A DNA stretch of 64,000 nt from Botryllus schlosseri (taxonomy: Eukaryota): assembly GCA_051294905.1 (NCBI GenBank), contig CM119371.1:1490001-1554000 (forward strand), given 5' to 3'. Below, in pieces: positions 6,552 through 63,245 of this stretch. The notes beneath the pieces were generated by a model that was given only the letters and a program-made list of their open reading frames with translations, was not told the origin of the DNA and searched no databases. Each line of letters starts with the position of its first letter. Within the stretch, counting starts at the first letter, position 1. Position numbers and translations under genes: made by a program.

Positions 6552-6798
6552 AGTTAGTAAATTGTACATCTTTAAAGGTCCTAGTTCTACTTCTAGTTTG
6601 GCATCTCAAAAATCATGTGGTTACAAAAGTTTGATCATTTATATTATTTCAAGACGTGGTTATAGTTTATGCCTCATTGGCTGAATGATGATCAATTGCT
6701 GTCAAGGAGGAGGAATGGCAGCAGAAAATTGCACAGATACTGATGAAGGTTTATGTAAAATGTAAGATCACAAATATCAACATCACTTGAAGTTTTAC

Positions 6799-18241: not shown

Positions 18242-18312
18242 CTGCAATGGTAGCCACAAAGTCACAAATATGTTCACCGTCAGACTTGAATAGTATATTC
18301 ATATTGAAATGA

Positions 18313-18346
18313 ACCCGAATATTTTCGGCTGACACTCGTCAGGGGT
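18313..18346 (-). ncRNA. Minimal type I hammerhead ribozyme (third PLE copy)
   Basis: acccgaatattttcggctgacactcgtcaggggt is the same motif with an intact core. Confidence 0.82.
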
Positions 18347-18612
18347 AATTGTCAGCAACTAGTAGAGAAATGGAAAGAACATTGTATATCAACAATCGTA
18401 TCACAAAATATGACGTCACCAGCATGAAATTTCGTGAATGAGAGAGCGTTCAATGTACTATTTTTAGGTGGTACACGAACTCCTTTTGTTGACAGAGTTT
18501 TGGTTGGTGTATTTTGATAAAAGTCGACACAAATGGAATTGTGAACGGCCTCGCTCAACGATTCGAAATCTGTTGTCTCGATAATTATTCGCACAAATCG
18601 GATCATCTAACA

Positions 18613-30459: not shown

Positions 30460-31635
30460 GCTCCACCACGCGGAATAACGAAAGGCGTCAAATACATAAC
30501 ATCATGCAGTTCGATATTTCAGTCCTACGAGACGTTAAGGAAAGAAGAAACACCAACCGAGGAGCTATCGCAAAAAGAGATCTACAACATCCTCATCAAG
30601 AACAGAACACAACATCAGGAGCACGAGCTGCAAGACTGGAAGCAAACGTGGCTCTACGACAATGATGTCAAGCACCACATCAACAACTATCAACGTGTAA
30701 TATCATACAGTATTATTAATGAAGCATACTTCACAGGAGCGCGTAAAAACAAAATGGGATGGACTACAAGAACATCCGTACCGCTCAAAAACGAATGCAA
30801 ATTCTGCAAGCAGAACCCAGATACGATGCAGCATATCTACACGAAATGCCCAGTGATCAAAAAGCTCTTCGACGTCATCAAATCCGACCTTGAGGACACA
30901 ATCCGAGCTGATATCATCCTAACGAGTGAAGACATGTCCCGAAATCACTACGACGGCCATCATAAGCAACAAATCTTCGAAACCTTCATGCAAATGAAAG
31001 AGATGATATGGCGTTGGAAAGCATCGCTCGACATTGAGAACGAATACGCCAATGACGTCACAAACAGAATTGAACTCGTACGAACATCGCTACACCCAAA
31101 CACACAGGAAGCAAGACAGCAATGGGATAGAGGATGAAGAGGAAGAAAACATACGCACGCGCGAATATCGCTTCCCAGACGCAATTATATACATTAACAT
31201 CATAACATAAAGCTACACAATCACGCAAACCTTTTCCAAAACTCGCAATTTTCCTATCTTCGTTTTCTGTCATAACTCATATTACATGCACGTTTATCCT
31301 TCCGTTGAACAATGAATAAAGAAAATACCCCCACCCCCCCCACCCCACACACACAAGCCCCACAATAAATTTTGGTAAATAACGTGAAATTGACAAAGAT
31401 ATGGAAATTTTATAAGCAAATCTTCCAAAACCACCGGGAAAGAAAAAGAAAGCATTTGATTGACGACCACACCCAGAACCAACGAAAGATCACCTACCAC
31501 ACCCTGTGCTAAACACAACCCAAGATGAACGCCATCTTGCCCAATAGCACCACTTTTCATAATTTCCTATACTTTCTATTCATCTATTTTTATTATGTTT
31601 TTGCTGATACTTTTGCATACTTGGAATAAAAACAC
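30460..31635 (+). mobile_element. 5'-truncated L1/Tx1-like LINE 3' end (zf-RVT CCHC domain plus 3' UTR)
   Basis: Open frame 30460-31137: KEIYNIL..DWKQTW..CKFCKQNPDTMQHIYTKCP..IWR. A/C-rich 3' UTR ending near AATAAA at ~31625. Confidence 0.78.
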
Positions 31636-36120: not shown

Positions 36121-39100
36121 CATAGGCGCCGACTTACGAGCTTACGAGGTGGCGGCCACCTCGTATAAAATGCTCAAACGCCCAAGTGATTTTTGACCAG
36201 TAATTAGTAATAAGGCGAATCGATGCGACCTCGTTAGAGACGTCTTCGATTTCGATACGCGCGCGTGCCAGGCGCGTAGCCACGGAGGTTTTGGGGATCG
36301 AACTTCCCTATTTGAGACGTGAAACCCCGTCATTTTGAAATGATCATTCTAACTCTGATATTCAGTTGCCATTCAATAATTGTGTATCAGTCTTCCGCGC
36401 GGCGGATTTGCGAGAAACGTGTTGTCAATTAGCAAGAAGAATCCGTGATGATCTCCCACTGAGATGATTGTAAAATTAGGTCATTCATGGCAATCGTCGC
36501 TAGCCTAATTTATCGCGTCTCGATCAAGCCTGGTTCCGCAGGCTTCAACAATCGCATCTGTAATAGGCCCAGTTCAACTGCGCAATCGAATCTGCATTGG
36601 CGGATTCGGCCTGGTGTGCACAATATTATCGCTGGCCTACACAATAGCATCTGCAATAGGCCTGGAGTGAAATATATCATTGCTGGCCTATGACCTAACT
36701 ATCGCGTCTAGGGCTTAGCAAGCTTTGGCTCCTATCTCTCGCTGGTTTCGAGACAATGCGGTCGAGTTTACGCTAATTAGTGATTATCTTATGTCATATT
36801 GATTAAAAAGCGACATCGCGAAACTGAATAACATCAAATCGCTGCAAACAGACTTTAACATGCAAAATTGATTCCCGCCAATACTTGAACGTAACGACCA
36901 GAAGATGTGTATCATGTCTCGAGTTCAGGAATACGACAAATGTTTGAAGTCGGTGCAATCAAGTTCGGACATTTTGATTTGCGAGAACTGTAGCCGAGAC
37001 ACGCGCGTATTTAATTGTTCACCAGAGATCAGTGACTCGCTAATTGACAGCACTCCAGGACTCTTTGGCAAGCTTTATCATACGCCTAAAATCGTCGATA
37101 CGAAGAGATTATATGATCGCCATTTACACATGTACTTGACCCTAATTGAATTGATGCTATATTGGTAAATTGAAAAAAAAAATCAAATCCCCAGTAAGTT
37201 TTCGATTGGTCGCGCGCCTAGTGTGTGCTGAGAAGCACCATCCTAGATCTCATCTGCCGACAATGCGCCCAAATATACGTTCTGCTTTTCTGAAATCTAA
37301 ATTATGTGCACTTTGTGCACCCATATTTGTTTAGAAAACCATTCATGACCTAGCTAGCTTCATGATAAGTAATAGGAGCCCGAAATTGGAGGGTGTGTTG
37401 GTGTGTGCCTGCAAATTGGAATTCATTTCTGCGCAGATTCGTTTCTCTAACAAGGCTTTGCCAGTGACATTAATCGGGAAATGCAGCAATACAGCTTAAA
37501 CACCGATATAATGAGAAAACAATTGTCGCGACGAAAGCTACTCAATACGGTGTCAGACTCAAAACCAATTCGTGGCGATACTGATTAGATTACACGCTTT
37601 CTCATTTGCCATCATTCATATTTCTTGTTATCTACTTGATACATTCGTACTCCGAAATTGTCGCACAAAGTCATTTTTCAGTCTTTCTTTCATTATTAAC
37701 GTGATGCATCACAAAATTATGGGTGGCACAAATTCTGATTTTATTCGATTCGTTTGAACAGGGAACCTTCTACATTCCGATAAACTTGATTGCTGGATGT
37801 ACTCGTATCGAGAACAACATTATCGCATATTAAACTATTAGGCACTAGATAGACAGTGGATTTCTATTGGTAAGGTCGCGGCATGCGTCCGAAAGTGGAA
37901 TTAATTCTAGTCCAAGGGTGGCCAACCCATGGCCGTAGAACGAAATTTGTGCGGCCGTCAACACGTAATTCAATTAGTATGCGTTGGCGGCCGTCGACAT
38001 GCAGATTGGATTTACGAATTGACCGATGTATTCCCGAAATGCTTCGCGAACTTAAATCGGGAAATGCATCAATATTTTAATCATCAAACAATTGCCGCGA
38101 TGCGAGTTAGTCAACGCGAACCAAGAAACCGCAAGAGACAATTACTGATTGGCTGCGCGATTTCGCGTTTGTAATCATCATTATTGTCTGCTTGAAGTAT
38201 TCGAGAGTTGTCGTGTGTTACTTGCAAGGCCAGTGCGCGTTGTATTTCGTTAGTCACAATGGGCATTGCGCGTGAATAATATTGATGCAGCTGCAGCAGG
38301 TGCGTATCCAGAGCGCGAAAAAAAGGGGGGGGGGCGGGTGCGTTAAGAAATTGGCTATTGTGACGTCATCATTACGATCACTCGTATCCAGTGTTGCCAA
38401 TCTAGGTTACCGGAAAAACACAAGATTATGTCGTGAAAAAACACTAGATTGGCGAAAAAAACACTAGATTAGTACATGGCAGGAATAATTTGCCCTTGTC
38501 AAGTAATCATGATGACCATAAGGTACAAATCCACAGATAAGAAGTGTTCCACACATGAATTCGATACATAAACTGCATGATTATTCAACGAAAATTAATG
38601 AAACGAATTCAATAGCGCAAAAACATCAAATATTGTCGCTTTCGAATTGTACACGGCATCATAAAAATTATCTTTCGATTATACACCATCCATCACTACC
38701 GTGCATCCTCAACCAAAAAATGGGGAGGTTTCCATGTGCAGCATACTTCAATTCCACGAATGCAGTGGAATGTGGCAATGCCAAGAGATTCGTCATGAGC
38801 TTCCCCAGTAAAGAATATTTTGATTCACCGAATCCATTGTGCACTGATTTCAATTTTTGCAAAAATTCTGTGTGAGGGCATTGACTGATAACCTGCAGCT
38901 CATTTTGCGATCTTGCCAAAGCAGCCCATTCTTCTGACAAATCATCAAGTTCATCAAATAATATCACAGAGGGAAATTGCACAGCTAGACGAATAATTGA
39001 TTTTACTATTCTTCGGCCTGCTTACATTTTTTTACATTTATTTATGACGCGAGACTCGAATTGAACAATGCTTAATTAGTACTCCACCAATGCAGCTGAC

Positions 39101-39802
39101 TGGATGATCCGCGGGAATCCCGCTGCAGCATTGTATTATATTTTTATTGCAATTTTGTTCAATAAAGCTGTCTGTCTGTCTCTGTAAATGAATATCTTGC
39201 CCGAATCTGCAGACTGAGTTTAACAAGAAACGACAGAGCATCAGAGCGAAATCGCTCTGCATTTTTTCAGAGACTTTCGCTCATGAGTACGGTTTCACAG
39301 CGCACCCTGTTACGTAATAATTGCTTGTTACTGCACCACCACCGCCATGGGCCATAGTGGTTTTAGTCCCCTTAAATTACATTAAGAAGCCATATTTGCC
39401 TTCTCATACGTAAAAACAAATATGTTAAACTAATAAATTAGCAAATATTAGAGGCTATATTTGACATCAATTTTTAGGATTTTGAAAAGGGGGGGGGATT
39501 ACGGCCCCCTAAACCCCCCTGGATACGCCACAGAACTGCAGATTACGTCGGACGGACTGGTAGCGCGGGCCGCAGTTACACTTCAAATGATCGTACCGTT
39601 TTAAGATTACTCGACTGCATGGTTTGATATTAATGAGTGCAAGGCCGATAATAAAACGTCACGCGAATGGTTTAACGCTGCACGTACACCAGCGGCATGC
39701 AGTAAAGTGCGTTTTCGTGCGACGATGACGTCATCGAGATGGAACAACTATGACGTTGTAAGACTTCGCCACCTCGTAAAAAAATAAAAGTCGGCGTCTA
39801 TG
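36121..39802. mobile_element. hAT-like element with CATAG termini containing nested fragments
   Basis: TIR cataggcgccgactt / aagtcggcgtctatg with subterminal gccacctcgta motifs. TSD actggtac/gctgctac (6 of 8 match). An internally deleted reverse copy lies at ~44090-45078. Confidence 0.72.
38750..38990 (-). pseudogene. hAT transposase C-terminal dimerisation-domain remnant
   Basis: FPSVI..LDDLSEEW..EF.QKL...GESKYSLLGKLMTNLLALPHSTAFVE resembles the hATC motif K(Y/F)..L..L...L.LPHS.A..ER. Confidence 0.72.
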
Positions 39803-40523
39803 GCTGCTACTATAGTACCGTATGTTCGTATACTACTACATTTATGAAAACATTTGTAGCAAACATCGTCGCGTGGCGCGCATGAAAATTTCGGGATTTG
39901 ACATGTTCTGTGGATGTTAATTTGCTCTGAATACTCATTAAGGACATGTCTTACTACCACATTATCTACTACGAAGTAATTTTTCTTCAGCGCCCCCTAT
40001 ATCGCCCCCTTGAGCCCAGCGACCCCAATTTCGTCCCTTGAGCGCTACCGCCCCCTTCAAAATCGCTAGCGCCCCTTGCGGGGCCGCTGGAGACAAGGTT
40101 AAGAACCACTGGTATACATCAACAGTTTTTTTATGGTGAATACTAATTTTTGCATACTTGATATTGTCATGTGAAAAGTAATTTTTGACGCACTTCAACG
40201 ACGCCTTGCTTCGAAATTGATAGAAGTGATATGCAAGCTCACAATTAGCAACGTGTGAGAGATCATGCCTGAATTTCGTACATCAACTTTTCGAATTAAG
40301 TATGGGATATCGAAATACTAAAATTCACGATTACCGTGCGTTATCACGTAACCCTGGCCACGACGCTACGTCATGCATGAAACTAAAGCCTCAGGATTTT
40401 TAGCTGCGCTAGTAACGAATTGGATTTTTTACGTGAATTGACCCTTTCATTCGAAATGATCGCGCATATATAATATACCTTAAAAAGCTTTCTAAGATAC
40501 GATGCAACCAAACAATGACTCAC

Positions 40524-40713
40524 CTTGTAAAACTTTCAATTCAGTATCGAGATCATTTACAATGTTCTGGACTTTCTGCAATTCGTCTCCTTTTAACATA
40601 TTATCTTCTTGGTTGTACATCAATGTTACTTTCTTCAAATTAGAGTTGTTGATGAGAGACGAAATGTCATCGAGTGAAGCAGGGTACAATAATATGCATC
40701 GGATATATTCGAT
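40524..40713 (-). CDS. Internal exon (190 nt, phase 0 to 1), LRR-like
   Basis: ctgcag / gtgagt. IEYIRCILLYPASLDDISSLINNSNLKKVTLMYN..LQKVQNIVNDLDTELKVLQ. Confidence 0.72.
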
Positions 40714-41099
40714 CTGCAGTGAGAAATTATAACTAATATTATTGTGAGTTACAATGATGCTTACCACTATTGTTGACCATGTCACCAGGGGCCATCATGT
40801 ATTACAATATACTTTGGATCACCAGTTTGGACGGTTTAGTCGGACCTGCTAGGCGATTCTGAAAACAATGGCCGTATTATCCAGCACATATCTAATACAT
40901 GTTGAAATTTTTAGTCGGAAACACTTCCATTCTCTCAAGAAGAAAATGTCGAGCATTTTCTGTTCAGGTCAAATTAAAACCATCCGACCGTGGTGTTGAG
41001 GTTGCACTGTCGTCACCATCAGAAACAAGTCACTGACATGGACACTAATGTTACCATACCTCCTCTTTTTTTACTTTTTTGAAAGTGTTCTAGAAACTC

Positions 41100-42675
41100 T
41101 AAGAGTGTTAAAATTTTTTTCTTCTTCAAATTTCAACGGCTTGCTTGTCAAATAGTCAGGTTACCTAAAAAAGCGTTGCACACCAAATTTGACTCAACTC
41201 CAACTAGTGGAAGACGAGGTCAGTCAAATTGAAATGTTAGTCATTTTTGAAATAATAGTATTTACCGTGACCAATTTCGTCACACAGACATGATCAAAAA
41301 TCGTGTTCCAGGTACGCCCGAAGTGGCAGGGATGTCTTTTTCACTAGGGTGTGGTTTGGATGAAGACATTGCCAGTAAACGAAAAAAATATATGACACGG
41401 ACCACCTGGAAATATAGACATGTCAAAACGATGGTGAGATAATTAACAAAAAGAGTGAGCCTACTTTACACACTGAAATTAACGGCCACGAAAAGAAAAT
41501 GAACTGACAAGCAGGTAAAATCTAGGTAAATATATTTCTCAAGTGATCTATATTCTGTGTCGGTCCAATGTAAATTTCTTCACGATACAATTTGATATTA
41601 TATGATATTTTATTATTTGTTCTGCACCACTCCTACAGTACTATCACAGGCGAATTAGAAGGCTTATGGTCATCGTGACGAATCTTCTTCCTATCAAAAG
41701 TTATCGTCCTCTATTCATGTCATCTTTCTCCTCCATATTCGGTTACTATAATCTAATTGTATTCATATATCGCAATAAAACACCAATGCCCTTTATCACT
41801 CTATGACAAGGGGGTCCTGGTGATATTGAAACACCCAAAACTGACTAATGTGCTTTATCAGCTCATTGGGTTACCATTTGGTTTCCCCGAATCTCACATA
41901 TGTGAAATAAACTCATAAACTCATCAACTCATTAATACTATTCAGTCATAAATACTATTCAGTGGCATAACCCATTCTCAATTGCAATCAGTGCCATTTT
42001 CAACACCCTGGATCAGTCAATGTCAAATAGTAGAGAAATATTTGAACACTGATCTGCTGAGGAATGCAACTGATGTCTCTGTGGATGAGGTTTTGGGAAT
42101 GGCGACTTTGCAATCAGTACAAACTTTGAATCAAAGCAGAGAGTATGCCCTGCATAACTGGGATAGATTTCGTCAGATCTAAATTTGACCGACAAAAAAT
42201 ACTTCATATGACTATAACTTGATAAATATATTTACCTGTATTTTACCTGCTTGTCAGGTCATTTTCTTTTCGTGGTCGTTAATTTTAGTGTGTTAAGTAC
42301 TCTCCATCGTTTTAACATGTATATTTCAATGAAGTGGACCAATTTCCAGGTAATCCGTGTCATATATTTTTGTTCACTGGCGATTTCCTCATTCAAACCA
42401 AACCCTAGGACCTTGTCAAGATCAAAACAAGGAGAAAAGACATCCCTGCCACTTCGGGCATACCTGGAACACGATTTTTGGTCATGGTGGTGTGACGAGA
42501 TTGGTCACCGTAAATAGTATTATTTCAAAAATGACCGAAATTTTAATTGGAGTGACCTCGGCTTCTACTGGTTGGAATTGAGTCAAATTTAGTGTGCAAC
42601 GTTTTTTAGGTAACCTGACGATTTGACAGGTAAGCCGATGAAATTTGAAAAAAAAGTATTTTTTCAACACCCCTA
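41100..42675. mobile_element. TAGGG-family foldback element with ~450-bp inverted arms and a unique internal segment
   Basis: Arms 41100-41545 and ~42215-42675 are reverse complements. Degenerate TSD agaaactc/aggagcac. Confidence 0.8.
41975..42180 (-). pseudogene. Possible decayed kinase exon inside a foldback element
   Basis: LY*LQSRHSQNLIHRDI.. followed, after a frameshift, by VLKMA. Confidence 0.35.
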
Positions 42676-43291
42676 AGGAGCACGCTCAAATGACCTCTTT
42701 TTGAGAATTTGTCCTCTTTTTTGAAAATTTTGTTAAAATATATGTGAAAATTCAACTGAGAAATTGGAAATAAGAACTGAAGTAACAGTCCGGCAGGTCA
42801 TTCGGGAGTTGAGCCAAAAAGGTGACCTTTTTTTATTCAACCAACTAAAAACATGGATTAAATTCACCAATTTTTCCGGTATTGTAAGTATGAATTTTTT
42901 TTAAAAGTTGTCCTTTTCAGATTCCCAAAATATGCTAACCCCAATTGACACTCAATTCCGAGATTACGACTAGCAATTTATTTTTCGTGTAAAACAGGGG
43001 CATGGATTTTGAAGCAATCTTCGGAATCATTTGTCTGGTCCGTCTCGCGGGTGCTCTGCAGGTTTGAATCCGACCCGCGACGCCAGTTGAGTTTGACACC
43101 CCTGCTTTAGATGAGAAAATTACCAGGAATCACGAACCCCGCAACTGCAGTGGATATTTCGGGTATGGAATATAATTTAATTCATGTGACGGGGACTCGT
43201 ACTGTGCGGCAGAATTTAATGATAAACGTGCAATGGTGGGAGAAAATCTTCCATATATCCAATGCAATTAATACTGGATGATAAGTATTAC

Positions 43292-43459
43292 CTTCTTTTG
43301 CTGACAAGCTTCTACCGTCTTCCTGAATTCATCTGCTTTCCTAACGTAAAACATTGCGTGGATATTGACGGGAACGGAAATTGCTCTCCGGCGCTCCAAA
43401 ATTCGATTGTAATTAACATCGGGTATCTGGCCATTCAGAGCAATATCCACGATATCCAA
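43292..43459 (-). CDS. Internal exon (168 nt, phase 0-0)
   Basis: ttttag / gtaata. LDIVDIALNGQ..TVEACQQKK, no stops. Confidence 0.7.
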
Positions 43460-43594
43460 CTAAAATGCGAAAAACAGTTGTTTCAAGACTTTAAGATAGC
43501 TGCCGAAGAGATGATTGGGTTCGAGGTCATATAAAATTATGGGTAAATGTAAATGCGTTTGAAAATACTTTGCGAATCGAATAAGGAATCGTAC

Positions 43595-43672
43595 TTGATA
43601 CTTTCTCCAGCAAGTCTCAATCAAAGACCAGTCGATGTCTTCATCTGTGCAATCGAGCAGGATCTTGCTTAT
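43595..43672 (-). CDS. Internal exon (78 nt, phase 0-0)
   Basis: gttcag / gtacga. ISKILLDCTDEDIDWSLIETCWRKYQ. Confidence 0.62.
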
Positions 43673-45170
43673 CTGAACACAATATTGGTTTCTTTGAGTA
43701 AGATGACATGATTGTTACGATGATCTCCCATTTGAATAATTATTCATATAGTTACAGTACAATAGTTATTAGTATGAATACTTCGATTCTCTATAATGCA
43801 TATACTACATCGATTTTAGTCTCATTCCAGAATATGTTTTTTTTTTAAATCCACTCAGGAATATGATATGCGTTCTACAAACGTATGATATAGAAGATGG
43901 TGCTCAAAGTAGTCATCGTCGGTAGTCAAATAGAAGTAACGCCTTCCATTTCTATTCAAGTTGAGGGAGGAGAAGCAATATGCAGGTAGTAAAATGTGAG
44001 TACTCACTGCTCAAGGTCTAGTTTTGTCTAAAAAATGAAAACTGTTTAATAGAATTAAAAGTACATAAAAAGCATAACCAATTGACAAGAGCCGACTTTT
44101 ATTTTTTACGAGGTGGCGAAGTCTTTTGACGTCGCAATTGTTCCATATCGATGACGTCATTGTCATACTAGAACGCACTTTACTATATGCCGCTTTTCAG
44201 CACACGTTAGGCACGTAGCCAGTCGATAATCAGTTTTTTTTCTTCAAATTTATCAATATAGCATCAATTAAATTCGGGTCAAGTACATGTGTAAATGGCG
44301 ATCATATGGTCTCTTCGTAATGACGATTTTAGGCGTATGATAAGCATGCCAAAGAGTCCGGGAGTGCTGTCAATTAGCGAGTCCCTATGATCTCAAGCCA
44401 TGATACACATCTTTTGATCGTTACGTTCAAGTATTAGCGGGAATCAATTGCGCACGGTAAAGTCTGTTCGCAGCGATTCGATGTTATTCAGTTTCGCGAT
44501 ATCGCTTTTTAATCAATATGTCAAAACCATCACTAATAGCGCAGCGAGTGATAGGAGCCAAAGCATACACAATTAGGCAGCAATGATATCTTTTGCCCCA
44601 GGCCTATTGAAGATGCTATTGTGTAGGCCATCGATGATACCGTGCAGGCCAGGCCGAAACCACCATTGCACATCTGATTGTGCGGCAAGCAATGATATAG
44701 TGTTAACTGGGCCTATTACAGATGCGATCATTCAAGCCTGCGGAACCAGGCTTGTTCGAGACGCGATAAATCGGGCTAGCAACGATTGCCATGCGCACGG
44801 GACTGAATAAACTAATTTCGCGACCATCTCAGCAGGAGAACATTGCTGACTCTTCTCGCTAATTGACAACACGCTTCGCGCAAATCTGCAACTGAATATT
44901 AGAGTCAGATCATTTCTAAATGACGGAGTTTCGGCGTTTCAAATAGTTGGGTTCAACCCCCTGTGGCTATGCGCTGGCAAACGCACGTTATCGAAATGGA
45001 AGATGTCTCTAACGAGGTCGCATCGAATTACTGGTCACAAATCACGTAGGCGTTTAAGCATTTTGTACGAGGTGGTCAACTAGAGAATAAAAAAGGTCAA
45101 CATTCGCTCAGCTCCCGTATGGTATGGTAACCCGACGTATGGTAACCCTATGTAAAAGAACTGCTCATTG

Positions 45171-47352
45171 AAAAAAAGAAAAATTTGAATTTCAAAAAGT
45201 GCCTTTGATATTTGGTCCCAAATCTCAAATGAATTACTTCTATCATGATTTCAGGTTCTTGCACCCTCTAGTGGCCGTGCAATTTCACCGGACGAGCCGA
45301 AAAGCTGCAGATGCAACATGTTTCTATCTCACTTCCATAGAACTTTGTTTTGAAAATGTACAGAAAAAAGTTACATGCAAATTACTGATTTTTAGACCGC
45401 CATTAAAAGGTTGGTGGGTTTTACCTAGGTTGCAATGCCAATTTGCATGTTACAATTTGTTACATTGCTGCTTTAACAACAAAATCTTGTTTGGTGGACC
45501 AATGAGTTGATTTTTATACCTACCGGGTATGATTTTGATCAGTAGAGAGAATGATAGAACTTTCATGATATTACATCATCACAAACCTTTATGATATGAA
45601 GTTGGTGAAAAGGGTATCTTCCTGTTCAACTCTACATCAAGCGATAGGCCAAGATTGTTGAAAAACTGAATCAGTTGCAGTAAATCAGCTATATAATTTG
45701 TAATTGATGTATGTTTTGTTGAAAATGATGAGATCACTTGATACATTGTTAAACTGTTTTATATATTATACATATTGTTCAAGCTGCTGTACTCATGTTT
45801 GGAATATTCTGGAACTTTCATAGTCAACCTCAAGTCTCCCAGTAGAAGTGATGATAACTCATTTTGAAAGTGTTCTGGTTTCTGGTGTATCTTGGAGTTT
45901 ATCTTATAATACTCTGGTATATTGGTGTTAAGACTGACTCTTTCATGTGTAGTATCAAAGGCCACTGCCTGTATGAAAAGGTCTCTGGAATATACTTTGC
46001 TACGTGTGTGAACTGAACTGACATTGTCTAGTATAAGTACAGATTCAGAATTTCATCATGTTCTACTTATAGCAGATTGTGGTTTATCATATGTACAAGT
46101 ACTGCAAGTAATTGACATATTGTTATCAAGAAAAAGATCCAGGTCTGTTGTTGCTTGCAATAAGTTGCACTGTGGAGAAACTTTTCAAAGTGTTGATGGT
46201 TTTCCTTCTCGAACACTTCAAACTAAAGACAGTTAAATATAGTTGTTTGATCACAACTAAAGTGATCAAAGTTGAGCATACCTTCATTCACTTGTCCTTT
46301 AGTCGGAAGTATTCCAGAAGGAAAACCATCAACACTTCGAAAAGCTTCTCCACAGTGCAACTTCTTGCAAGCAACAGAAGATTTGGATGTTTTTCTTGTT
46401 AACATTATGTCAATTACTTGTAATACTTGTACATATGATAAACCACAATCTGCTATAAGTAGAACATGGTGAAATTCTGAATCTGTACTTATACTAGACA
46501 ATGTCAGTTCAATTCACACACATAGCAAAGTATATTACAGCAACCTGTTCTGTTCATTCAGCCAGCGGCCTATGACACTGCACAGTGCTCAAGGAGGAGA
46601 TAGTTTTAATGCAGATATTACAGATAATTATATGATCAACTCCAAGATAAACCAGAATATGTATAATATATAAAACAATTTACAATGTCTCAAGTGTTAT
46701 GGAAAATCATCATTTTCAACAAAACATGCAGGTATGAGGTATATAGGCTAAATTATATAGCTGATTTACTGTAACTGATTCACAGTTTGAACCATCTATG
46801 CCTATCGTTTGTTGTAGAGTTGAACGGAAGATACCCGTTCCACCAAGCTCATGACATAAAGGTTTGTGATGATGTAATATGATAAAAGTTCAATCATTCT
46901 CTATTCTTCATCCAAATTATGCTAGGCTGATATATAAATCAACTCGTAGGTCAATTGATACGCCCTGCCAAACAAGATTTTGTTATTAAAGTTCTAATGT
47001 AACAAATTGTAACATGCAAATTATCATTGCAAACTTGGTAAAACCAGCCGACATTTTGAATGGCGGTCTAAAAATCAATGATTTGCTTGTAACTTTTTTC
47101 TGTACATTTTCAAGACAAAGTTCTATGGAAATGAGATAGAAACATGTTGCTTCCACAGATTTTAAGCCAAAAACTAGCCTTCAAGCATAAGCGGTTATTA
47201 GGATATGGCAAAATTAGCTATTTTTGGCTCGTTCGGTGAAATTGCACGACCACTAGAGGGTGCAGAAACCTGAAATGATGATAGAAGTAATTCATTTGAG
47301 ATTTGAGACCAAATATCAGCGACACTTTTTGAAATTCAAATTTTTCTTTTTT
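45171..47352. repeat. Diverged inverted duplication (~1.06-kb arms, ~60-bp spacer)
   Basis: 45171-46230 is the reverse complement of ~46293-47352. ORFs 46024+ and 46501- have near-identical translations. Indels differ between the arms. Confidence 0.9.
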
Positions 47353-47627
47353 TTCACTTCTCCCTACACTCAAGTAGAACTGGAAGTAGTCAAAATCATT
47401 GCCGCTTGAGTAAGTATGCAAAATTTATTTCAGTATTCTGGAGAAGTACTGGTTTGCTAACTACATCTATTATGGAGTCACTTTCATATTTCCAGAATAC
47501 ATGGTTAATATGACAATTTCACTCATAACAGAAAGATGAACATTTGCGGAAGTACTGTAAGTGAGAAAACTTTATTAACCACATCCATCAAAAAACTACT
47601 TCTCAGAGTGCAAAATAGGTTTACGTA

Positions 47628-49775
47628 CCGTAATTTTCCATGTATAATGCGCAAAATTTTCACGTTTTTTGCCCTGGAATAGGGGGGTGCGTATTATACA
47701 TGGGTACAACAAGCCTTGAAAAAAATCTCCCTCGATAAAAAACTTGAAATCACACTTTTCTTCATGTTTGTTTCCAATCGCATATCACTTCCAGCCATCG
47801 CGCACATTAATTCGTATTATAGAGTGTAACGCGCAGCCAATTAGCGGGAAGCGTGTTGCCAATGAACGAGAGTCGTGTACAAAAGGACGCGATCTCCCGC
47901 TGAGTTGGTTTGCCGTTTGTACGCGAGCGAAAGTAAGTCAGTCATAGACACTAACGCGCGGCAATTCTCGCTAATTCATCGCGTCAACGACATGCCCAAA
48001 CAATCGCATATACGTATACAAGAGGCCATGTGCACAAGATATAATCGCTTGCGTAATCGCATCTCCAACAGACCTGGTGCGCATGACATAACCGTTAGCC
48101 CGAGCACTCGCATCATGCGCAAGATGTCGGTTCGTTGGCCTACACCATCTCGCCGCCGGCCTCTAAGGCTTTGGCTGCTCTCTACTATCGTTTAGAGCAG
48201 TGCTCTTCAACCGGGGTTGTCGTAAACCCCAGGGTGTACCAGAATTTGCAAAGAGTGTATCACTCGGATTGGGTGTACAGGGGTGTACCAGATCCTAATT
48301 ACAATGAGCCGAAGGCTAGCTATCACAAAGGCAGGTTCATGGGTCAGTACAGTTTGACGCACAGGTTAATGAGCATGGTACGATGTTATCTCAAGTGTAA
48401 TACTGTACACCGTTTGATTGTGATGTTATAAACACAAATTTCTCGTATTCATTTAGCCGTCGGCAATAGACCAATGGTTCCGTTTGGTGTTGGAAAGTAT
48501 GCAGGTAACAAACATGTGTTCAGCTAGTCATTTTTCTTTAGTGATTTTTGAGGAAACCGCCGCGATAGCTCAGACTTCTTGAATCGGTACTTCATACCCG
48601 ACATTAATAAATACCGCAATGCACATAAATGAAGTGACGAAGCCAGCCAGGGTCGAAACAGCATCCATGATGAAATCGAAACCCTTTTGTTTTAAAATGC
48701 CGATTTTATGTCCAATATTTCGCCATACATTTGCAATTTAATATTTTGTTATTAGTGATGCAAATTAGCGACAATAGACTGTGTATAGCGACATACAATC
48801 TGAGGTTGCTGACATCTTTTGCAGCCCATGTGCTACTATCGACTGTGTGTGGTGTGGGGCAGGCCTGATACGCAGCAGGCTGGTGCGTCTGCTATCATCG
48901 CTGATCTGAATTACCGCTTCTGCAGCAGTAGCATTACCTACTCTGTCCCCAATACTGTTACATTTAGGTTGATTATCGTTCGTAATGTCATGCTGTTTTT
49001 GGGCTGACACGAAATAAATTCCAATTTGCGTGACAGGCGGCCTAACTGGCGGCGAATAGACTCTGTGACCAAATACTATTTTATTCAAATCCAAATTTTT
49101 GGACGGCAATAACTCCGCTTCTACTGGTTGGAATTGAACCAAATTTGAAGAACATCGTTTTTATAGACAACCTAATACTTTCATCGGGTGAACAGAAAAA
49201 TTTCAAATTTGTCGTTATTTATTTTTCCCGTAGCAATGCGGCTATACTGGTTGGAATCGAACCAAATTTGGTGTGTAGGCTTAAATTAGGTAACCTAACA
49301 ATTTTATCAAGTAGCCAGTACGATTTGAGAAAAAAGTCATTTTTGAAGACCCATAACGAACAGGGGTGTACGAGTTTTGAGCAAACGTTAAAAGGGTGTA
49401 CCACTCCGAAAAAGGTTGAAGAGCACTGGTTTAGAGACAATGCCGTTAATTGTATAATGATTAGCAATCGCATCTGTAATAGGTCTCGTGTCGTTGGCCG
49501 GAACTATCTCGCCGCCGGCCTCGTAGGCTTTGGCTGCTATCTAGTATCGTTTAAACACAATCCCGTAATTGCATAATGATTTGCGATCGTTATGTCATGA
49601 TTGTTCAACAGTGACATCGCAAAGCAGAATGACATCGTGTACTAAATCGGAACTATTCATGTAGTGAAATGCAGGATGCGTACTATACATGGGTATAGGG
49701 TTTTTCCCAGAATTTGCATGCTATTTTAGGGGTGCGTAATATACATGGGGGCGTACTATACTTGGAAAATTACGG
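47628..49775. mobile_element. Non-autonomous Tc1/mariner-type element hosting nested insertions
   Basis: TIR ccgtaattttcca / tggaaaattacgg flanked by TA. Another copy begins at ~25916. Confidence 0.82.
48198..49428. mobile_element. Non-autonomous hAT element
   Basis: TIR cagtgctcttcaacc / ggttgaagagcactg. Perfect TSD gtttagag (48190-48197 / 49429-49436). Confidence 0.92.
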
Positions 49776-52700: not shown

Positions 52701-53259
52701 CTGAATTACTTCATGGACATCATATTGACTCCTATATTACAAGGGAAACAAAACGTTTTTTTTAGTCAAAAACGCTGTTATGTTCAGTAAAAACTTTTTC
52801 GATGCGCACTTTGTTGTTAAGGACTGGTAATTATCTGTTGCGAACCGACAATGTCTACATGCGCACTCCAGAATTCTGACGATGCTAGTAATGCTTCTTG
52901 TTACTCACGCTGTGCATTTTTTAGCGGCACGGGGCGTTCGATTATGTAAATGCGACATAATTTGTCAAAATATTGATGCACAATTCGATCATCGCCAGCC
53001 TGACCGGTATCGATCACACCAATATCAAATTTCATTACGTTGCATTCATTTCACTCATTCTCAATGTAGTAGAAAGCGTGTTTTTGTTGACGAGGTTGTG
53101 ACGTTACCTCAGTTCTCTTATTGTTGCCACTACGCAACATAATCCACCATTTCACTAAATTCGATTACATAGCTCGATATTAATGACACAGTGCGGATGA
53201 TAAAGCATCATATCAGTGGGTAAATACTTTGAGGCTTCGGGATGAATGCAGATTTCACT

Positions 53260-54055
53260 GGCTATGTGATAAAATTGTTAGGTTGGTTAAAAGAACGCTG
53301 TAAACCAGTTGAAGCGAGATTCTTGCTGTAGAAAATTTTGAATTATTCAATAAAAAAAGAATTCAAAGTTTTCTGTCAACCCCATAAAATTGTTAGGCAA
53401 TCAGTAGAGATGATGCACACCAAATTTGGCTCAATTCCAACCGCTCGGAGCGAAGTTATTGCCGTAGTAAAATTTACGATTCAATGATTTTATAATAAAT
53501 AATTATAGCTTTCAATACAACATCCATTGCAGTACAATATTTAAACTCAAATACTTTTCGGTTGCCTCTTTTTAAGAGTTAAAGGTACACTAAATGGATT
53601 TAAGCGGATTTAGAAGCAAAACCAAATCTGTTCAATTCCCTTCAGTGTGCCGTTAACTTTTGTAAAGAGGCACCCGGAAAGTCGTCGAGTAAATAAATAT
53701 TCTACTACAATGGATGTTGTATTGAAAGCTATATTCAAGTTATGTACGGCGAATCTGATATTCAAACAAATAATTGATGAGTTTGCCACCGTAAAAGCTA
53801 ATTTATTGGAATCCAACTTTTTCTACTGCAATAACTTCGCTTCTAGCGGTTTGAATTGAGCCAATTATGGTGTGCCTCGTCCCTGCTGACAGCTTAACAA
53901 TTTCACGAGGTTGACAGAAAAATTTTGAATTTTTTTTTGTCATTTCTGAATGACAAATCCAAAACTTTCTACTGCTAGAAAATCGCTTCTACTGGTTGCA
54001 ATAGACCCAAAGTTGATGTGAAGCATTGTTTTCGCCAACCTAACAATTTCATAAC
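53260..54055. mobile_element. Imperfect ~800-bp palindromic MITE of the same family
   Basis: 53270-53610 is the reverse complement of 53625-54052. The core also occurs at ~35965-36085. Confidence 0.72.
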
Positions 54056-55856
54056 ATAGCCACTGAAATCTAAACATTTTTTGTACAGCCTTAATGCAGA
54101 GGACATGTAGTATAATGCTTTCTATCACGACTACGGCGTCATGGATCACGAGCTGTCATCACGTCACAAGTCTCCGCATACCCACATAAACTATACTTCG
54201 GCAACTATATGCTTGTTAGTACGTAACTAAATCATAGAATCGATCTCACTTCCCAATCCAATTTTCCAAATAGCGATTCAATCCGACGATGTCCGAGAAG
54301 TGAACGTAGTGCTTTTGCTGGGAAATTGTTGTGACGCAAATCCACTTCCTTCACCTGCAACGATGGAAATATTTTATGAAACTAGGGTACTAATCGTAAA
54401 AGACAGTATACCAGATGCTATTTACGTTACGGCCGAAGGATAACCAATACAACGTACATTACGGAGCCAATGCTGATTGTTCAACTATTCGGGAACATGT
54501 GTCACATTCGATATAACTCGAGAATCTCTAGTGATAAAATGTGCGCACTGAGTTCACAGGTTTACGTAAAATGTATCGCAAAGTAGTTCTTCATAGAAGT
54601 GAAAACGCAACGCAACACAAGGAGAATTAAAGTGACAAAAATATGGCTCTGATATCTGGTTTCGCAGCAAAATGTCAGTTTTGGGTCAACCGGTCCCTGG
54701 CTCCCACAGAAACCTGAAATGGGTTTGAATATTGATGAACCAAATTCCAATGTCACCGCTTATAGTTGAATCTATCTTATTCCTCACAACATATATCGGT
54801 AGTCACCACAGTTTTCACGACTCCGACTCCATCGCGCGAAGATTAGCCAAACTCCGACTCCACAGCCCTGGTTACAACCCCGTCATAATCCTGATTTAAA
54901 TGTCCCATATTATATCGACTTTACTTGATTATAGATAGTGCACTGTAGTACACTGTTACATGACATCATCGAGAAGTGGCCTCGTGGCCATTTTTGGTAT
55001 GGCACACTGCCAAAATCAATATGAACAGACCAACACCGAATTTTGCGCAAAATTTACTGAGGAATAGGATGATCAAGTGATCAGCCGTTAGCCGCCATCG
55101 AAAACGAAACAGTTATCGCGCTTGACAGGGGGTTGTAATTGTAGCAAATGGCCTGAAGGCCGCAATTTCACGGTAAAATTGACATTGGAGAATATAAAAT
55201 AAAAGTAAATATTTGAATGCCAACCGAGAATGTTAGTAAACTGTCTAATGATATCATCATCTCATCACCTATCTCAGCATGGAACACAGTTAACGTTACC
55301 ACAGACACAGCGGCTTTGCGTGAAATCCGCAATTCGTTAGGTATAGGCCAGCGGTTCTCAACCAGGGGTCCGCGGACCCTAGGGGTCCGCGAAGCAATTT
55401 CAGGGGGTCCGCGAGACCTCTAGATTTTTCAAATGGTTGTTAACCTTATATTATTTTATTTTTAAATTTGAGAAAGCATGGGGCAGTTTCGCACCACAAG
55501 TGCTAAAACCTCATGACTCATATCATCATAATATTCGTATGACATGAACTATCGTAGTGTGGAAAATCATTTCCATTGCGAATTTTTCAATAACCTGCTG
55601 ATAGAAACATATTGCTGTTTAGAGACGTTTTGTTAGGGTTTGTGGAAAAAATAAAAATATGGAGATAACGTCAATCAGGGTGACTTCATAATGTCTGCGA
55701 AACCTTCTCGATGCGAAGTTGTCAGTACAATAAAATTAGTGAACAGTCGTTTGAGAAAAAAATGCCGGAGTATTTCCCTAATTTGTCCCAATGGAAGGAT
55801 TGAAACCTCGCCACGAAATTTATTTATTCTGTGATATACACAACCACTATTTTAAC

Positions 55857-55945
55857 AGCTTCTTGAAGGTAGAGAACTGCAATATACAATTGAATAGTAT
55901 ATTCATATTGAAATGAACACGAGTATTTGCGGCTGACGCTCGTCA
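55857..55945 (-). mobile_element. Degenerate PLE terminal fragment (tail plus eroded hammerhead)
   Basis: Diverged match to 56394-56482. Confidence 0.75.
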
Positions 55946-56453
55946 TAAATAAGAGATTGATATATCTGCCCTTAAAGCTCGACTATCAGATTTTGCACAT
56001 TCTTATTGCGGATTCCCTATCGCCAAGGCTGGTTTTTTGATGAACAAGGAGCGTTTCGTTGCTATCAAAGCATTACGCTCCAACCCTGAAATTCATATCA
56101 CCAGTTATATTGGTATGCAGCCTTGTCTTGTTAATGTTCAATTGTTCACGGTCGAAAATGTTTGCTCGTAAATATATATGTCAACCCGAACATAACAAGT
56201 CGTTCCTGACAGTTTTTCTCAGGTTGGAAAGCTTGGATCCATTCTTTGGCGCAGAAAATTTGTCTATACTTTTAGATTAAGATTTCACTTTGACAGTATA
56301 AACTCTCTGCGGCTCGCGATTTGTATGTTGCCATCCCTGCGCTAGCTGCTGGACATGATATGTTCATAAAATATATGTTTCTTCATTTTGAAGAGCTTCT
56401 TGGAGGTACAGAACTTCAATATACAATTAAATAGTATATTCATATTGAAATGA

Positions 56454-56487
56454 ACCCGAATATTTTCGGCTGACACTCGTCAGGGGT
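56454..56487 (-). ncRNA. Minimal type I hammerhead ribozyme (left arm copy)
   Basis: Exact reverse complement of 57534-57567. Confidence 0.85.
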
Positions 56488-56588
56488 AATCGTCAGCAAC
56501 TAGTAGAGAATTGGAAAGAACATTGTATATCAACAATCGTATCACAAAATATGACGTCACCAGCATGAAATTTCGAATGAGAGAGCGT

Positions 56589-57006
56589 TCAATGTACTAT
56601 TTTTAGGTGATACACGAACTCCTTTTGTTGACAGAGTTTTGGTTGGTGTATTTTGATAAAAGTTGATTCCAAGGCACACAAATGGAATTGTGAACGGCCT
56701 CGACCTACGATTCGAAATCGGTCGTCTCGATAATTATTCGCACAAATCGGATTATCCAACAGATGTTTGCCGATGGCAGAATTAATTGCCTTTGATCGAT
56801 CAGCATCAATCTTAAGTGGATGAGTTAAGGGTGAGCTTTTCACATCGCGTGACGCACGTGTTCTGATAAATCTGGGGACATGTTGGTTTATGCGGTCCTG
56901 CAGACGTCTTGACGTTCTTCCCACGTAGCCACAATCACAGTGGCACCTATATTCGTACACTACATTACTTTGTTGAAGTGCAGGAAGCACGTCTTTGCGT
57001 GTTGAA
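56589..57006 (-). CDS. Mirror copy of the PLE GIY-YIG domain (left arm)
   Basis: The ORF track translation is identical to the + arm from STRKDVLP onward. Confidence 0.85.
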
Positions 57007-57432
57007 CTGCTCCCTTCAACACGCAAAGACGTGCTTCCTGCACTTCAACAAAGTAATGTAGTGTACGAATATAGGTGCCACTGTGATTGTGGCTACGTGG
57101 GAAGAACGTCAAGACGTCTGCAGGACCGCATAAACCAACATGTCCCCAGATTTATCAGAACACGTGCGTCACGCGATGTGAAAAGCTCACCCTTAACTCA
57201 TCCACTTAAGATTGATGCTGATCGATCAAAGGCAATTAATTCTGCCATCGGCAAACATCTGTTGGATAATCCGATTTGTGCGAATAATTATCGAGACGAC
57301 CGATTTCGAATCGTAGGTCGAGGCCGTTCACAATTCCATTTGTGTGCCTTGGAATCAACTTTTATCAAAATACACCAACCAAAACTCTGTCAACAAAAGG
57401 AGTTCGTGTATCACCTAAAAATAGTACATTGA
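57007..57432 (+). CDS. GIY-YIG endonuclease domain, C-terminal part of PLE ORF (5'-truncated, no true start)
   Basis: LPSTRKDVLP..SNVVYEYRCHCDCGYVGRTSRRLQDRINQH...SAIGKHL...F.IV.R....LESTFIK..QPKLC.QKE matches the PLE GIY-YIG pattern (VVY..C.C..YVG.T.R.L..R..H; SAI..H; LE..I...P.L). Confidence 0.88.
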   Translation: MLPSTRKDVLPALQQSNVVYEYRCHCDCGYVGRTSRRLQDRINQHVPRFIRTRASRDVKSSPLTHPLKIDADRSKAINSAIGKHLLDNPICANNYRDDRFRIVGRGRSQFHLCALESTFIKIHQPKLCQQKEFVYHLKIVH

Positions 57433-57533
57433 ACGCTCTCTCATTCGAAATTTCATGCTGGTGACGTCATATTTTGTGATACGATTGTTGATATACAATG
57501 TTCTTTCCAATTCTCTACTAGTTGCTGACGATT

Positions 57534-57567
57534 ACCCCTGACGAGTGTCAGCCGAAAATATTCGGGT
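57534..57567 (+). ncRNA. Minimal type I hammerhead ribozyme (PLE-associated)
   Basis: ACCC-CTGACGA-G(TGTCAGC)C-GAAA-ATAT-TC-GGGT: stem I ACCC/GGGT, intact CUGANGA and GAAA core, palindromic AATATT stem III, UH cleavage site after C57563. Confidence 0.85.
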
Positions 57568-57984
57568 TCATTTCAATATGAATATACTATTTAATTTCTT
57601 CATTTTGGTGCCATAAATGTTACGAATGTATTCGGCAATCCTCGTTCATATCAAAACGAAGACGTGGATTTTCAAGACACGGCCTATAGTACTTCAAGAA
57701 ATACAGCAGCAAAATTAGCTTTGAAGTAATAAAAGTCTACCAATTTCTACATAAATCGTATGAGGTTATTTTCAAGAAAAATCATTATTTTCCTGTTTAT
57801 CACAAGCATACAGTTCATATTTGCATAAGACATGAAGGTTGCACCATATTAGAGCAAAAGTTGAACTCAAACTTGAGGGGGTCCGCGAGGGTCCGTGACG
57901 GTCAAAAGGGGTCCGCGAAACCAAAAAGGTTCTTTTCTTCTCAATAGTATTCCCACACAATCTGAATGCCCTTTACCTGGATAA

Positions 57985-58110: not shown

Positions 58111-59505
58111 ACTCTAAGGACTCTTAGTCTTCGAGCTCATCAGTTGAACATTGACATGCTATTGGCAACAAGCACAAAACATACCCAGCATATTTCCCAA
58201 GTAGTCTACCAAGTATCGGAACTGTCTTTAAACATCACTGTTAGTCCTTGTGACGGTGTTTTCGTCAGTATTAACAATGTCATTCCAAATATCAATTCTA
58301 AAATCGCTCACATTCTGAATTAGACAAGAACCCCTAATGATATCAACCTACATCAAGATCTGACGGAAGAGCAGCTCAAGACATTTCTGCCACTGAAATT
58401 TCCTACGCGGAAAATATATATTATCTGACTCATGGAAAATTGAGTTTTCCATGATCTGACTTCTACATGTAAAAAATATAGTTTATAAACTCCGAGAAGA
58501 TAAGTTCTACCTTTTCTGAACCAAAACATGTTCGACAAGATTCTTATCAGGTTTTCGTCAAAATAAAAATCCTGTCCTGATCCGGATCCGGCAAAACAGT
58601 AAAATCTGGAATCCGGATCCAATCCTATTGCCAAAAAATCACCCGGATTCCTGACCTGTTAGAATCCAAAATCCTGATCCTGTACATCTCTAGTAGCTAT
58701 ACGGCGTTTGGCGTCTGTTATGTTCAGACGCCGAGCAGCAATACAGCGGAGTTATTTCAGTTTTTATTCGATAATTCTGGGATTATCCTTGATTGGTGGA
58801 TAATCCAAGAATTATCACAGAAAAACTGGAATAACTCCGCTTCTACGGCTTGGAATTGAGTCAAATTTGTTTTGCATAGTTTTTGAAGACAGCCCAACAA
58901 TTTCATGGGGTTGGCAGAAAAATTTGAGAAAATTTTTTTTTTGCGTTTATGGGCAAATCCAAAATTTTCAAACTCTACGTAAACCGCGAATATTTGTCGG
59001 AATGAATTCAAATTTGGTGTGCGTCGTTTTTTAAGGCAACCTAACGATTTAATCAAGTAACCAGCAAGATTCAGGAAAAAAAGTTATTTTTGAACAGCCC
59101 TAATGTGCATGCCTCCTATTTACATCGCGTTGGCCCAGATGGGTGTCTGATCTTAAGACTACTAGTCGTGCCGGCATCTTCCTATCATTCATTGTATTGC
59201 AGTCTTGTGATGTTTTGAAGTGATGAAATTTTATGAATAAACTTGAACTTGAACTTTGAAATAAGAAGTCTTGCCATTTTATACATAGGCTAAATAGTAT
59301 GATGTTATTTTCAGGAAAGGTCAATTTGTTGCTGTTTATCACTAGCCTGCAGTTAATATTTGCACAATATAGATGACGGTTGCACGATAATAGAGATAAT
59401 TTTGAACCAAACCTTGCGGGGTAAACGGTGGTCCGTGATGGTCCAAAGGGGGTCTGCGAAGACAAAAAGGTTGAGAACCACTGTCATATACAATACCAAG
59501 GCCTG

Positions 59506-61599: not shown

Positions 61600-62859
61600 C
61601 TAAATCTTGCCACGGTTTTTGAAAAACTGATTGACTGCCGACTCAAAAAATTTTTCGAATTGAATGCAGTACTGTCTCCGACCCAGCATGGATTCAGATC
61701 AAACCACAACACCAACCATGCAATACTATCAATTGTAACGGACTATTACAAAACCATCAAGCAAAAAAATAGTGGCTGCAGCATTTTTATCGACCTCCGC
61801 AAAGCTTTCGACACAGTTAACCACAGAATCTTAAGATACAAGCTAGAACACTATGGAATCAGGGGTATTGCAGCAACTCTACTTGAAAGCTACCTGGCAA
61901 ATCGCAAACAATTTGTTAAACTGGGGACATTAAGATCGACTACCAGAGATATAACTTGTGGAGTCCCACAAGGCTCAGTCCTTGGACCGACTTTTTTCCT
62001 CATTTATATTAACGACATTGTTAATGCATCTTTATTCCGCACAACCCTATTTGCTGATGATACTCACCTCTTCATAACCTCTAACACTGGCAATGATTTG
62101 CATGCATCCGTGAATAGGGAACTCCCAAAAGTATCGAGATGGCTCCAAGCAAACAAACTAAGCTTGAATGCAGATAAGACCGAGATGCTCCTTTTAAATA
62201 ATGCCAATCATAGTTTCACTGTGAACATCAATCATAAACAAATCTCCATATGTGACTCAGCAAAATATCTCGGTGTCACTATTGATGCTAAAATGTCTTG
62301 GAAGCAGCATATTGAATGCACAATATCAAAACTAGCTCGGTGTGTGGGAATAATGACCCGTCTGCAATCTTTGGTTTCCAGATCAATACTACGAACCATA
62401 TATTTTTCTCTTTTCCACTCTCACCTGCAATATGGAATCGTAGTATGGGGAAGTGCATGCAAAACATTTCTGTGCAGAATTCGAACCCTGCAAAACCGTG
62501 CGATACGGCTGATCTCATCTGTACCTTTACGTACCAATTTATCGCCTTACTACCGTAAGCATCGAATTTTGCGAGTTGATGAGCTATATCGCTTCGAAGT
62601 ATCAAAAGTTGTTCACAAATATTTTTCCAATAGTCTGCCTCCTGTGTTTGATGACTTTTTCATACCTGCTAAAAATGTCCATTCCCATTACACGAGATCC
62701 TCGTCAAAGGGAAATATCTACTTACCCCCACCCAATAGCAACCTAACTAAGAGATCTATCGACTACTCGGGACCTATCATTTGGAATGCATTACCACCAC
62801 ATATCCGTGAATTGCCTTATGATAGATTCAAAAAAGCCCTACTTGATCACCTCTTATCG
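61600..62859 (+). mobile_element. 5'-truncated non-LTR retrotransposon ORF2 (reverse transcriptase, CR1/L2 group)
   Basis: Open frame from ~61600 (VFEKLI..QHGFR..FIDLRKAFDTVNH..GVPQGSVLGP..LFADDT..KYLGV) with the typical C-terminus YTR..P..RSI.Y.GP.IWN.LP..FKK. No endonuclease domain. The last ~22 codons of the listed ORF (to 62928) come from an inserted hAT end at 62860. Confidence 0.92.
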
Positions 62860-63245
62860 CAGTGGTTCCCAACCTTTTTCATCTCGTGCCTCCCTTGGCC
62901 GAAATTTGAGCCAAAATTCCCCCCTTAGGAGAAATCTGCCCGATGATTAAAAAAGGTGATTTTTAACCGCGCAATCACCGGTTGACCGAAGAATAAGACG
63001 GGCGGTACGGAGTGTTTGTTTCTAGCAGTGCTGTAGCAACACTTTGTAGACCTCCAAAAACAATGGTCTTGGTCCCAATCAAACAAATTCTGGAAGGCTT
63101 GACTCAACAGACCCCATTTTTCCATTTGTGTTTTCGGCTTATTATGCACTAATCGCTAATATAACCGCTGTGAAAAATCAGTATGCATAAATGTACTGGT
63201 CTCGCGATTTTTTTCTCAAGTAACTAAGTAAGTGGCCTTCCTATT

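Follow-up and report, generated by a model that had tools for sequence, protein, structure and literature searches.

In endonuclease-bearing (EN+) Penelope-like elements (PLEs) an adjacent inverted 5′-truncated copy combined with a one-sided tail of 30-40 bp has been stated to be the norm (PMC8557442, Craig et al. 2021). The elements Pen2a, Pen2 and Pen3a of Adineta vaga are flanked by TSDs of 8-10 bp and carry an optional 31-bp tail which extends the N-terminus of the ORF; these families are low-copy, lie head to head and have palindromes of 18-38 bp at their junctions (PMC3846280, Arkhipova et al. 2013). The minimal hammerheads of PLEs have been described as having a type I core, a G10.1-C11.1 pair and a palindromic stem III for dimer formation, and pairs of them on opposite strands, 100-700 bp apart, have been reported (PMC4209133, Cervera and De la Pena 2014); the dimer model has been restated in PMC6765202. 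The PLE of the anole cleaves and extends both DNA strands, its RT starts at two sites one tail apart, and a dimer has been predicted for it (PMC11167929, Frangieh et al. 2024). No model for inverted arms was found in the available text of the latter article, and the available main text of a preprint on retrozymes and PLEs (bioRxiv 10.64898/2026.07.22.740005) holds no passage on inverted arms or tails. The head-to-head layout, the one-sided tail, the junction palindromes and the opposite-strand hammerheads are thus already known (PMC8557442, PMC3846280, PMC4209133).

In this work we have analyzed a palindromic PLE copy located in a 64-kb stretch of DNA, the whole of which is referred to as the window. 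The locus is best explained as one recent, dead-on-arrival insertion of an endonuclease-bearing PLE, 5′-truncated and in the head-to-head layout. By itself it is of little weight, every part of it being in print and no complete protein being encoded; what it offers is a clean case for the question of how the inverted ends and tails of PLEs arise.

Structure of the palindromic insertion

An inverted-repeat search of the window identified two arms, 56425-57006 and 57015-57596, which are exact reverse complements over 582 of 582 bases (100%). The left arm (− strand) is an inverted 5′-truncated PLE 3′ end comprising the GIY-YIG part and the pLTR, the right arm (+ strand) is a sense 5′-truncated 3′ end, and each of them reads outward from the last part of the ORF into the pLTR. 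Zero mismatches set the 95% upper bound for the divergence of the arms at 0.51%, unless conversion or polishing has equalised them. The insert is bounded by a TSD, an exact 13-bp direct repeat (56378-56390 on the left and 57595-57607 on the right, + strand) with a chance expectation of about 8e-5 for 1600 placements; the right copy overlaps the right arm by 2 nt, its first 2 nt being the last 2 nt of the arm. A foldback DNA transposon or MITE was considered as well and rejected, since the ends are PLE 3′ ends and asymmetric.

The left arm alone carries a tail, 34 nt placed between the left TSD and the arm (56391-56424, − strand; 36 nt with the 2-nt overlap into the TSD). It is PLE family sequence, as it recurs at 19727-19771 and 55850-55945 of the window, in the copies referred to below as B and D. 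Starting from the ATG at 56443 (− strand) the end of the pLTR and the tail together encode 18 residues, the tail accounting for most of them. This peptide aligns to the N-termini of all four homologs of more than 800 aa (0, 0, 0 and 4 of 500 shuffles were as good) and gave no alignment to three N-truncated homologs. Since the tail encodes the N-terminus of the ORF, the template must have continued past the pLTR and included the beginning of a following ORF, a feature also described for Adineta Pen2a (PMC3846280).

The arms are separated by an 8-nt spacer (57007-57014, + strand) providing Leu-Leu-Pro codons, with which an open 3′ end of the PLE ORF begins: 141 codons for the end of the linker and the GIY-YIG endonuclease, followed by the stop codon (57007-57432, + strand). 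Among the 28 homologs matching the motif pattern, out of 39 fetched, the spacer Leu was present in 22 and the Pro in 25. Two longer proteins, P0040 (236 aa) and P0134 (374 aa), each contain all 141 arm-encoded residues exactly, which identifies the spacer as element sequence in sense orientation on the + strand; at the 5′ end the right arm therefore extends further than the left. The reading of the spacer as an antisense loop on the + strand was rejected, the − frame lacking the conserved Leu-Pro. The residue which precedes the spacer is Gln, and a Gln codon upstream of the spacer leaves at most 2 nt of microhomology (a 2-nt stem) at the centre. The initial annotation had described two mismatch-free 582-bp arms, an 8-nt spacer belonging to the + reading frame, a 13-bp TSD and a tail of ~35 nt on the left arm only; all these were borne out, and so was its view of the locus as a PLE insertion with an inverted 5′-truncated repeat, a known layout and one young event under one TSD.

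The element family and its other copies

The 141 codons starting at 57007 matched Pfam GIY-YIG weakly (E 0.019, below the cut-off), and P0001, a protein 58% identical to the endonuclease fragment, passes this cut-off. The fragment is 49-53% identical to the C-termini of three homologs of 826-850 aa and 45% identical to that of a fourth; all three of these four homologs that were scanned carry RVT_1. P0134 extends back to the RT catalytic motif (YVDD; RVT_1 match with E 1.2e-5, below the curated cut-off), and it is through this protein that RT and GIY-YIG were found in one ORF, the truncated copy itself being without RT. The element accordingly combines the features of EN+ PLEs: a C-terminal GIY-YIG domain, RT upstream in the ORF, a pLTR with the ORF start and a hammerhead motif, as well as 5′ truncation, an inverted adjacent copy and a TSD. 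The sole Cys-pair pattern of P0134 lies inside the endonuclease and its linker is without any; by the criterion of PMC8557442 this points to Penelope/Poseidon, a putative placement reached by exclusion of Neptune, Nematis, Naiad and Chlamys. Cluster look-ups of the family proteins gave no named reference protein.

Three public DNA contig sets (X1, X5 and X6) and one raw RNA run were matched at 88% likeness to the region 55950-57036, i.e. to the left flank, the left arm and the spacer plus the next 22 bases. The family proved to be very abundant (140,849 matching records in X1, 45,520 and 7,845 in the two other DNA runs), and its depth declines steadily toward the 5′ end in all three. Among the 24 loose ends listed (of 2339) one cluster falls at 56387-56391 (455, 138 and 141 in X1, 447 and 178 in X5, 133 in X6) and another at 56430-56435 (152 in X1, 239 and 167 in X5, 82 in X6), both with mixed AT-rich flanks in 3/3 DNA runs. 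The latter cluster is clipped beside an allele at 56429, the true ends being within a few bases of the arm end. Two 3′ ends, separated by some 36-40 nt, are thus present in the family. In X1, 45 records pass position 56390 straight into letters of which the first 14 equal 57608-57621; they represent the target without insert and with one copy of the TSD, and may be paralogous and not allelic, as the flank is multicopy. Eight of the 15 joints listed (of 692) change strand, six of them internally with offsets of 35-127 nt. The rows listed (15 of 692 joints, 24 of 2339 loose ends, 40 of 135 differences) include neither the centre of this copy nor its own left junction, nor the DNA upstream of the spacer. 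An opposite-strand joint in X5, 56388/56425, was seen in two contigs and links the tail end directly to the tail-less end; it could belong to a tail-to-tail array or to a circular form.

Both arms share minority alleles; for instance, the other allele makes up 69-81% of the summed depth at 56429 and 74-100% at 56787. The allele of this copy at 56787 reaches ~26% of the summed depth in X1 and ~1% or less in X5 and X6, a split hinting at a sub-lineage expanded in some individuals only. Among the 40 differences listed (of 135), ten concern the coding region and eight of these are silent, which fits descent from functional masters. The active master element postulated by the initial annotation was thereby substantiated in part: the longer, RT-bearing P0134 is identical over the endonuclease and eight of ten listed variants are synonymous, but no full-length family ORF was found. 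The longest family protein found has 374 aa and belongs to a cluster of 3, the best of 39 longer protein matches is 59% identical, and a search with the 48-aa RT N-terminal fragment returned 0/24. Judged from these sequences, recent activity of the family is likely. The RNA run, of which 6% was read, gave 4163 matching reads; 98% of them continue into unlike sequence and the two directions of the pLTR are equally represented (800 vs 792), which fits copies embedded in host transcripts; these reads carry no information on this locus. A search of public runs for the locus itself listed no RNA run, a blank given no weight here. A metagenome scan yielded two loci (L001 and L002) from 188 candidate stretches, neither of them with a long inverted arm at the element.

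The window holds three further copies of the family besides the palindrome (copy A). Copy B (18286-19771; 18274-19785 with its 13-bp TSD, which has 1 mismatch) is composed of a tail-less arm of ~400 nt followed by a tail-bearing arm of 45 nt in the opposite direction; the tail arm overlaps the tail-less end by ~7 nt, and a short templated, slippage-like repeat is found where the two arms join. The tail-less arm of copy B is interrupted by a non-coding element of 1.03 kb (18613-19641) bounded by terminal inverted repeats and an 8-bp TSD, which we take to be hAT-like from the length of this TSD; ends related to it were seen near 55349-55415 and 57910-57930. Copy C (6378-6554) is a plain truncated end with no tail. 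Copy D (55850-56102), recognized by identity and tblastn, has two parts. An older, inverted PLE end with tail (55850-55945), which shares 89.6% identity with the arm across 96 nt, is joined to an RT N-terminal fragment in sense orientation (55959-56102), which matches residues ~220-277 of the homologs; a TSD was looked for around copy D and not found. In total the four copies present three tail ends and three tail-less ends, and at the outer junctions of copies A and B the element overlaps the TSD by 1-3 nt in 4/4 cases.

The target of the palindrome is a multicopy stretch (55850-56390 and 57608 onward) that starts with copy D, whose join was found at summed depths of 1646 and 861 in X5. A non-autonomous derivative of a PLE is one possible interpretation of this repeat, for which neither a right end nor a TSD could be found. 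Other repeats of the window are an older nested palindrome of 2.2 kb with arms of 80-92% (45171-47353), long decayed inverted repeats ~7.5 kb apart (36156-45075), and palindromic elements of ~146-bp subrepeats (2771-3454, with relatives at 7111-7419, 49071-49355, 53250-54071 and 58745-59106). Two fragments of non-LTR retrotransposons were also noted on the + strand, one with a 442-codon RVT_1 frame (61600-62928, E 3e-30) and one with a zf-RVT frame (30430-31137, E 7e-6).

Formation of a palindrome with one tail

Fold-back self-priming or template switching had originally been proposed for this locus. A folded-back strand carries its loop antisense, and the spacer is antisense on the − strand only, so that the folding strand must be the − strand; this strand begins at the right end, where there is no tail for it to template, which excludes an untrimmed fold-back. 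The sense spacer and the left-side tail thus rule out the simplest fold-back model, and what is left of the proposal is the need for a second priming, a template switch or the trimming of an end. In LINE-1 twin priming both nicks prime on one RNA, and a microhomology join gives a 5′ inversion inside one TSD. In L1, however, the inverted segment comes from further upstream in the RNA and is not duplicated, whereas here the 3′ end is present twice, and an L1-type inversion without duplication was rejected for the palindrome.

We give a probability of roughly 0.55 to the reading that both target nicks were primed, at two RT start sites, and that both arms derive from one template. According to this reading the GIY-YIG domain would nick both strands of the AT-rich target, 13 nt apart, and the template would be an RNA of more than unit length that includes the pLTR, the hammerhead and the first part of a following ORF. 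The bottom-strand nick would prime at the proximal start site (no tail) to give a primary cDNA of ~590 nt, the top-strand nick would prime at the distal site ~36 nt further 3′ (tail), and the two cDNA products would be joined head to head. Derivation from one template would account for arms which are identical and end 8 nt apart. Either a second RT would follow the first along one RNA, or the primary cDNA would snap back at its end and the new strand would be captured by a short tail cDNA; the data fit both options alike, and we infer the order of events and the join. The shared minority alleles agree with one template and do not separate the two options.

The two end classes, with and without tail, speak for this reading, and so do the two start sites and the extension of both strands described for the anole PLE (PMC11167929). 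The layout of copy B, in which a 45-nt tail arm faces one of ~400 nt across a slippage-like join, fits separate synthesis of the tail end, and the 4/4 TSD overlaps of copies A and B are as expected if each nick is primed, overlaps of 1-2 nt being weak evidence in AT-rich DNA. Several points speak against priming of both nicks. If the two cDNAs were independent, they would seldom end within 8 nt of each other, so that some additional coupling has to be assumed, and a loop of 8 nt is the product expected of snap-back. Strand displacement would be required of a second RT copying the same template, and the polarity of copies A, B and D is equally predicted by a trimmed hairpin.

A more specific version, which we put forward tentatively and with less confidence than the priming of both nicks, is that the head-to-head repeat and the one-sided tail are a single product of an RT-endonuclease dimer which nicks both strands and copies one RNA twice from two start sites. 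If so, the 5′ reach of the tail-bearing arm should never exceed that of the tail-less one, and a near-perfect palindrome would mark the extreme at which the second RT has drawn level with the first. The former rule holds in both clean copies of the window (3/3 with copy D). A literature search on Penelope twin priming with inverted copies returned no PLE-mechanism paper by title; as subscription journals lie mostly outside such a search, novelty is not implied.

The junction palindromes of Adineta have been read in print as self-priming on an antisense template (PMC3846280), and the one-sided tail as a trace of endonuclease resolution (PMC8557442). Combined, these steps offer a possible, though less probable, origin of the locus: an antisense strand including the tail, RNA or cDNA, would fold and be copied to a full hairpin, ~34 nt would be lost at its 5′ end by endonuclease resolution, and integration would follow, the tail forming a 3′ extension. 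This would leave the arms identical, confine the tail to one of them and place a short antisense loop on the − strand, all of which is observed. Copy B fits such a trimmed hairpin poorly, as a ~390-nt loop closing 7 nt from the end would be required and the join is slippage-like; moreover, TSD overlaps at both ends suggest priming at both, and the tail ends match the two RT start sites observed in vitro (PMC11167929). Because the family is so abundant, genome-wide counts of arm offset and tail side could decide between twin priming and trimmed hairpins.

Two further accounts were considered. One is that two insertions occurred separately at the same site, or that gene conversion or cruciform repair has kept the arms of an older palindrome identical; the identity of the arms would then be no measure of age. 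The great abundance of the family, the location of the copy in PLE-derived DNA and the homogenisation to which long inverted repeats are open would all suit this. That a single perfect 13-bp TSD bounds the arm pair, that the layout recurs in copy B, again inside a single TSD, and that the open frame equals P0134 over 141 aa, which arm-arm conversion would not maintain, make this very improbable. Still less credit is due to an artefact of assembly or library fold-back, i.e. a chimeric read, or polishing which equalised the arms. It would explain the zero mismatches in 582 bp, the absence of the centre junction from the rows listed for the three DNA runs, and the fact that each DNA run matches less than half of the locus words (best 0.44). 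A read fold-back would, however, mirror flank DNA too, whereas the palindrome stops at the TSD and has a one-sided tail; the flanks are contiguous elsewhere with one TSD copy (the 45 X1 records), and inverted joints are family-wide (8/15 listed). An artefact is therefore unlikely.

Hammerheads, hairpin RNA and related systems

A motif scan found one minimal type I hammerhead core per arm, starting at 57538 (+) and 56483 (−). The complete motif as read from the sequence spans 57524-57567 in the right arm (+ strand), and its mirror 56454-56497 in the left (− strand). The right-arm hammerhead has a stem I of 4 bp, a stem II made up of one G-C pair and closed by a loop II of 7 nt, and a palindromic stem III of 6 nt (57557-57562), with the predicted cut after 57563; a 6-nt strand upstream of stem I (57524-57529) can pair with loop II (57547-57552). 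Loop contacts of such type are common in hammerheads. The motif is kept in L001 (4600-4648) and L002 (562-610), at 50-53% protein identity, with compensating changes in stem III and in the loop II pairing and with a stem I of 5 bp; the first core base is changed in L001. In the window the core is intact at three sites and decayed in copies C and D. As a sequence motif the hammerhead is real. Rfam at the gathering threshold gave 0 matches in the whole window, and at E<=10 no hammerhead was returned for 55700-57800; four matches obtained at E<=10 (two to mir-568 at the hairpin centre, two to CRISPR repeats) are far below the cut-offs and were dismissed as chance. The monomer fold of the hammerhead region was no better than that of shuffles (z -1.39), and the ribozyme fold was not obtained in it. 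No pile-up of read ends was seen in the RNA run (6% read), a type of library that need not keep cut ends.

The initial annotation had also predicted that transcription of the locus would give a 580-bp hairpin with a hammerhead at its 3′ end. The hairpin is supported by a computed fold with a 582-bp stem (-1124.5 kcal/mol); the free 3′ position of the hammerhead is not, since it lies ~30-70 nt from the arm end, inside the duplex. As the hammerhead would be fully paired in the 582-bp stem, and the single sense copy would be without a dimer partner, cleavage inside a read-through hairpin is unlikely according to this model.

Silencing of Penelope elements by small RNAs has been reported (PMC3846280). 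For this copy the role of a natural siRNA/piRNA trigger against the family, put forward in the initial annotation, is hypothetical. Inverted joints are common in the family, so that this copy is not special, and a role in silencing would matter only if small RNAs could be traced to this copy and not to other inverted copies. Silencers of the Mu killer type are inverted duplications which give a long hairpin if transcribed. The inverted duplication is alike here, its hairpin being a computed one.

When the locus is set against the described PLEs, its parts are familiar. With the EN+ PLEs treated in PMC8557442 it shares the head-to-head inverted 5′-truncated copy, the one-sided tail (here 34-36 nt), the pLTR hammerhead and the C-terminal GIY-YIG; unlike them it has no full-length or tandem body, and with near-equal arms the whole insert is one palindrome. 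With the Adineta PLEs (PMC3846280) it has in common the TSD, the ORF-extending tail, the palindrome at the inverted junction and the head-to-head arrangement, and it differs from them in its 13-bp TSD, in its 582-bp arms reaching into the endonuclease and in belonging to a very abundant family. Its hammerheads agree with those of PMC4209133 in the type I core, the G10.1-C11.1 pair and the palindromic stem III, and depart from them in that stem II has one pair and a 7-nt loop able to pair upstream of stem I, and in that the two motifs lie ~1.05 kb apart. Poseidon of Anolis carolinensis (PAc) resembles it in having end classes one tail apart, AT-rich targets and a hammerhead at the junction of pLTR and ORF (PMC11167929).
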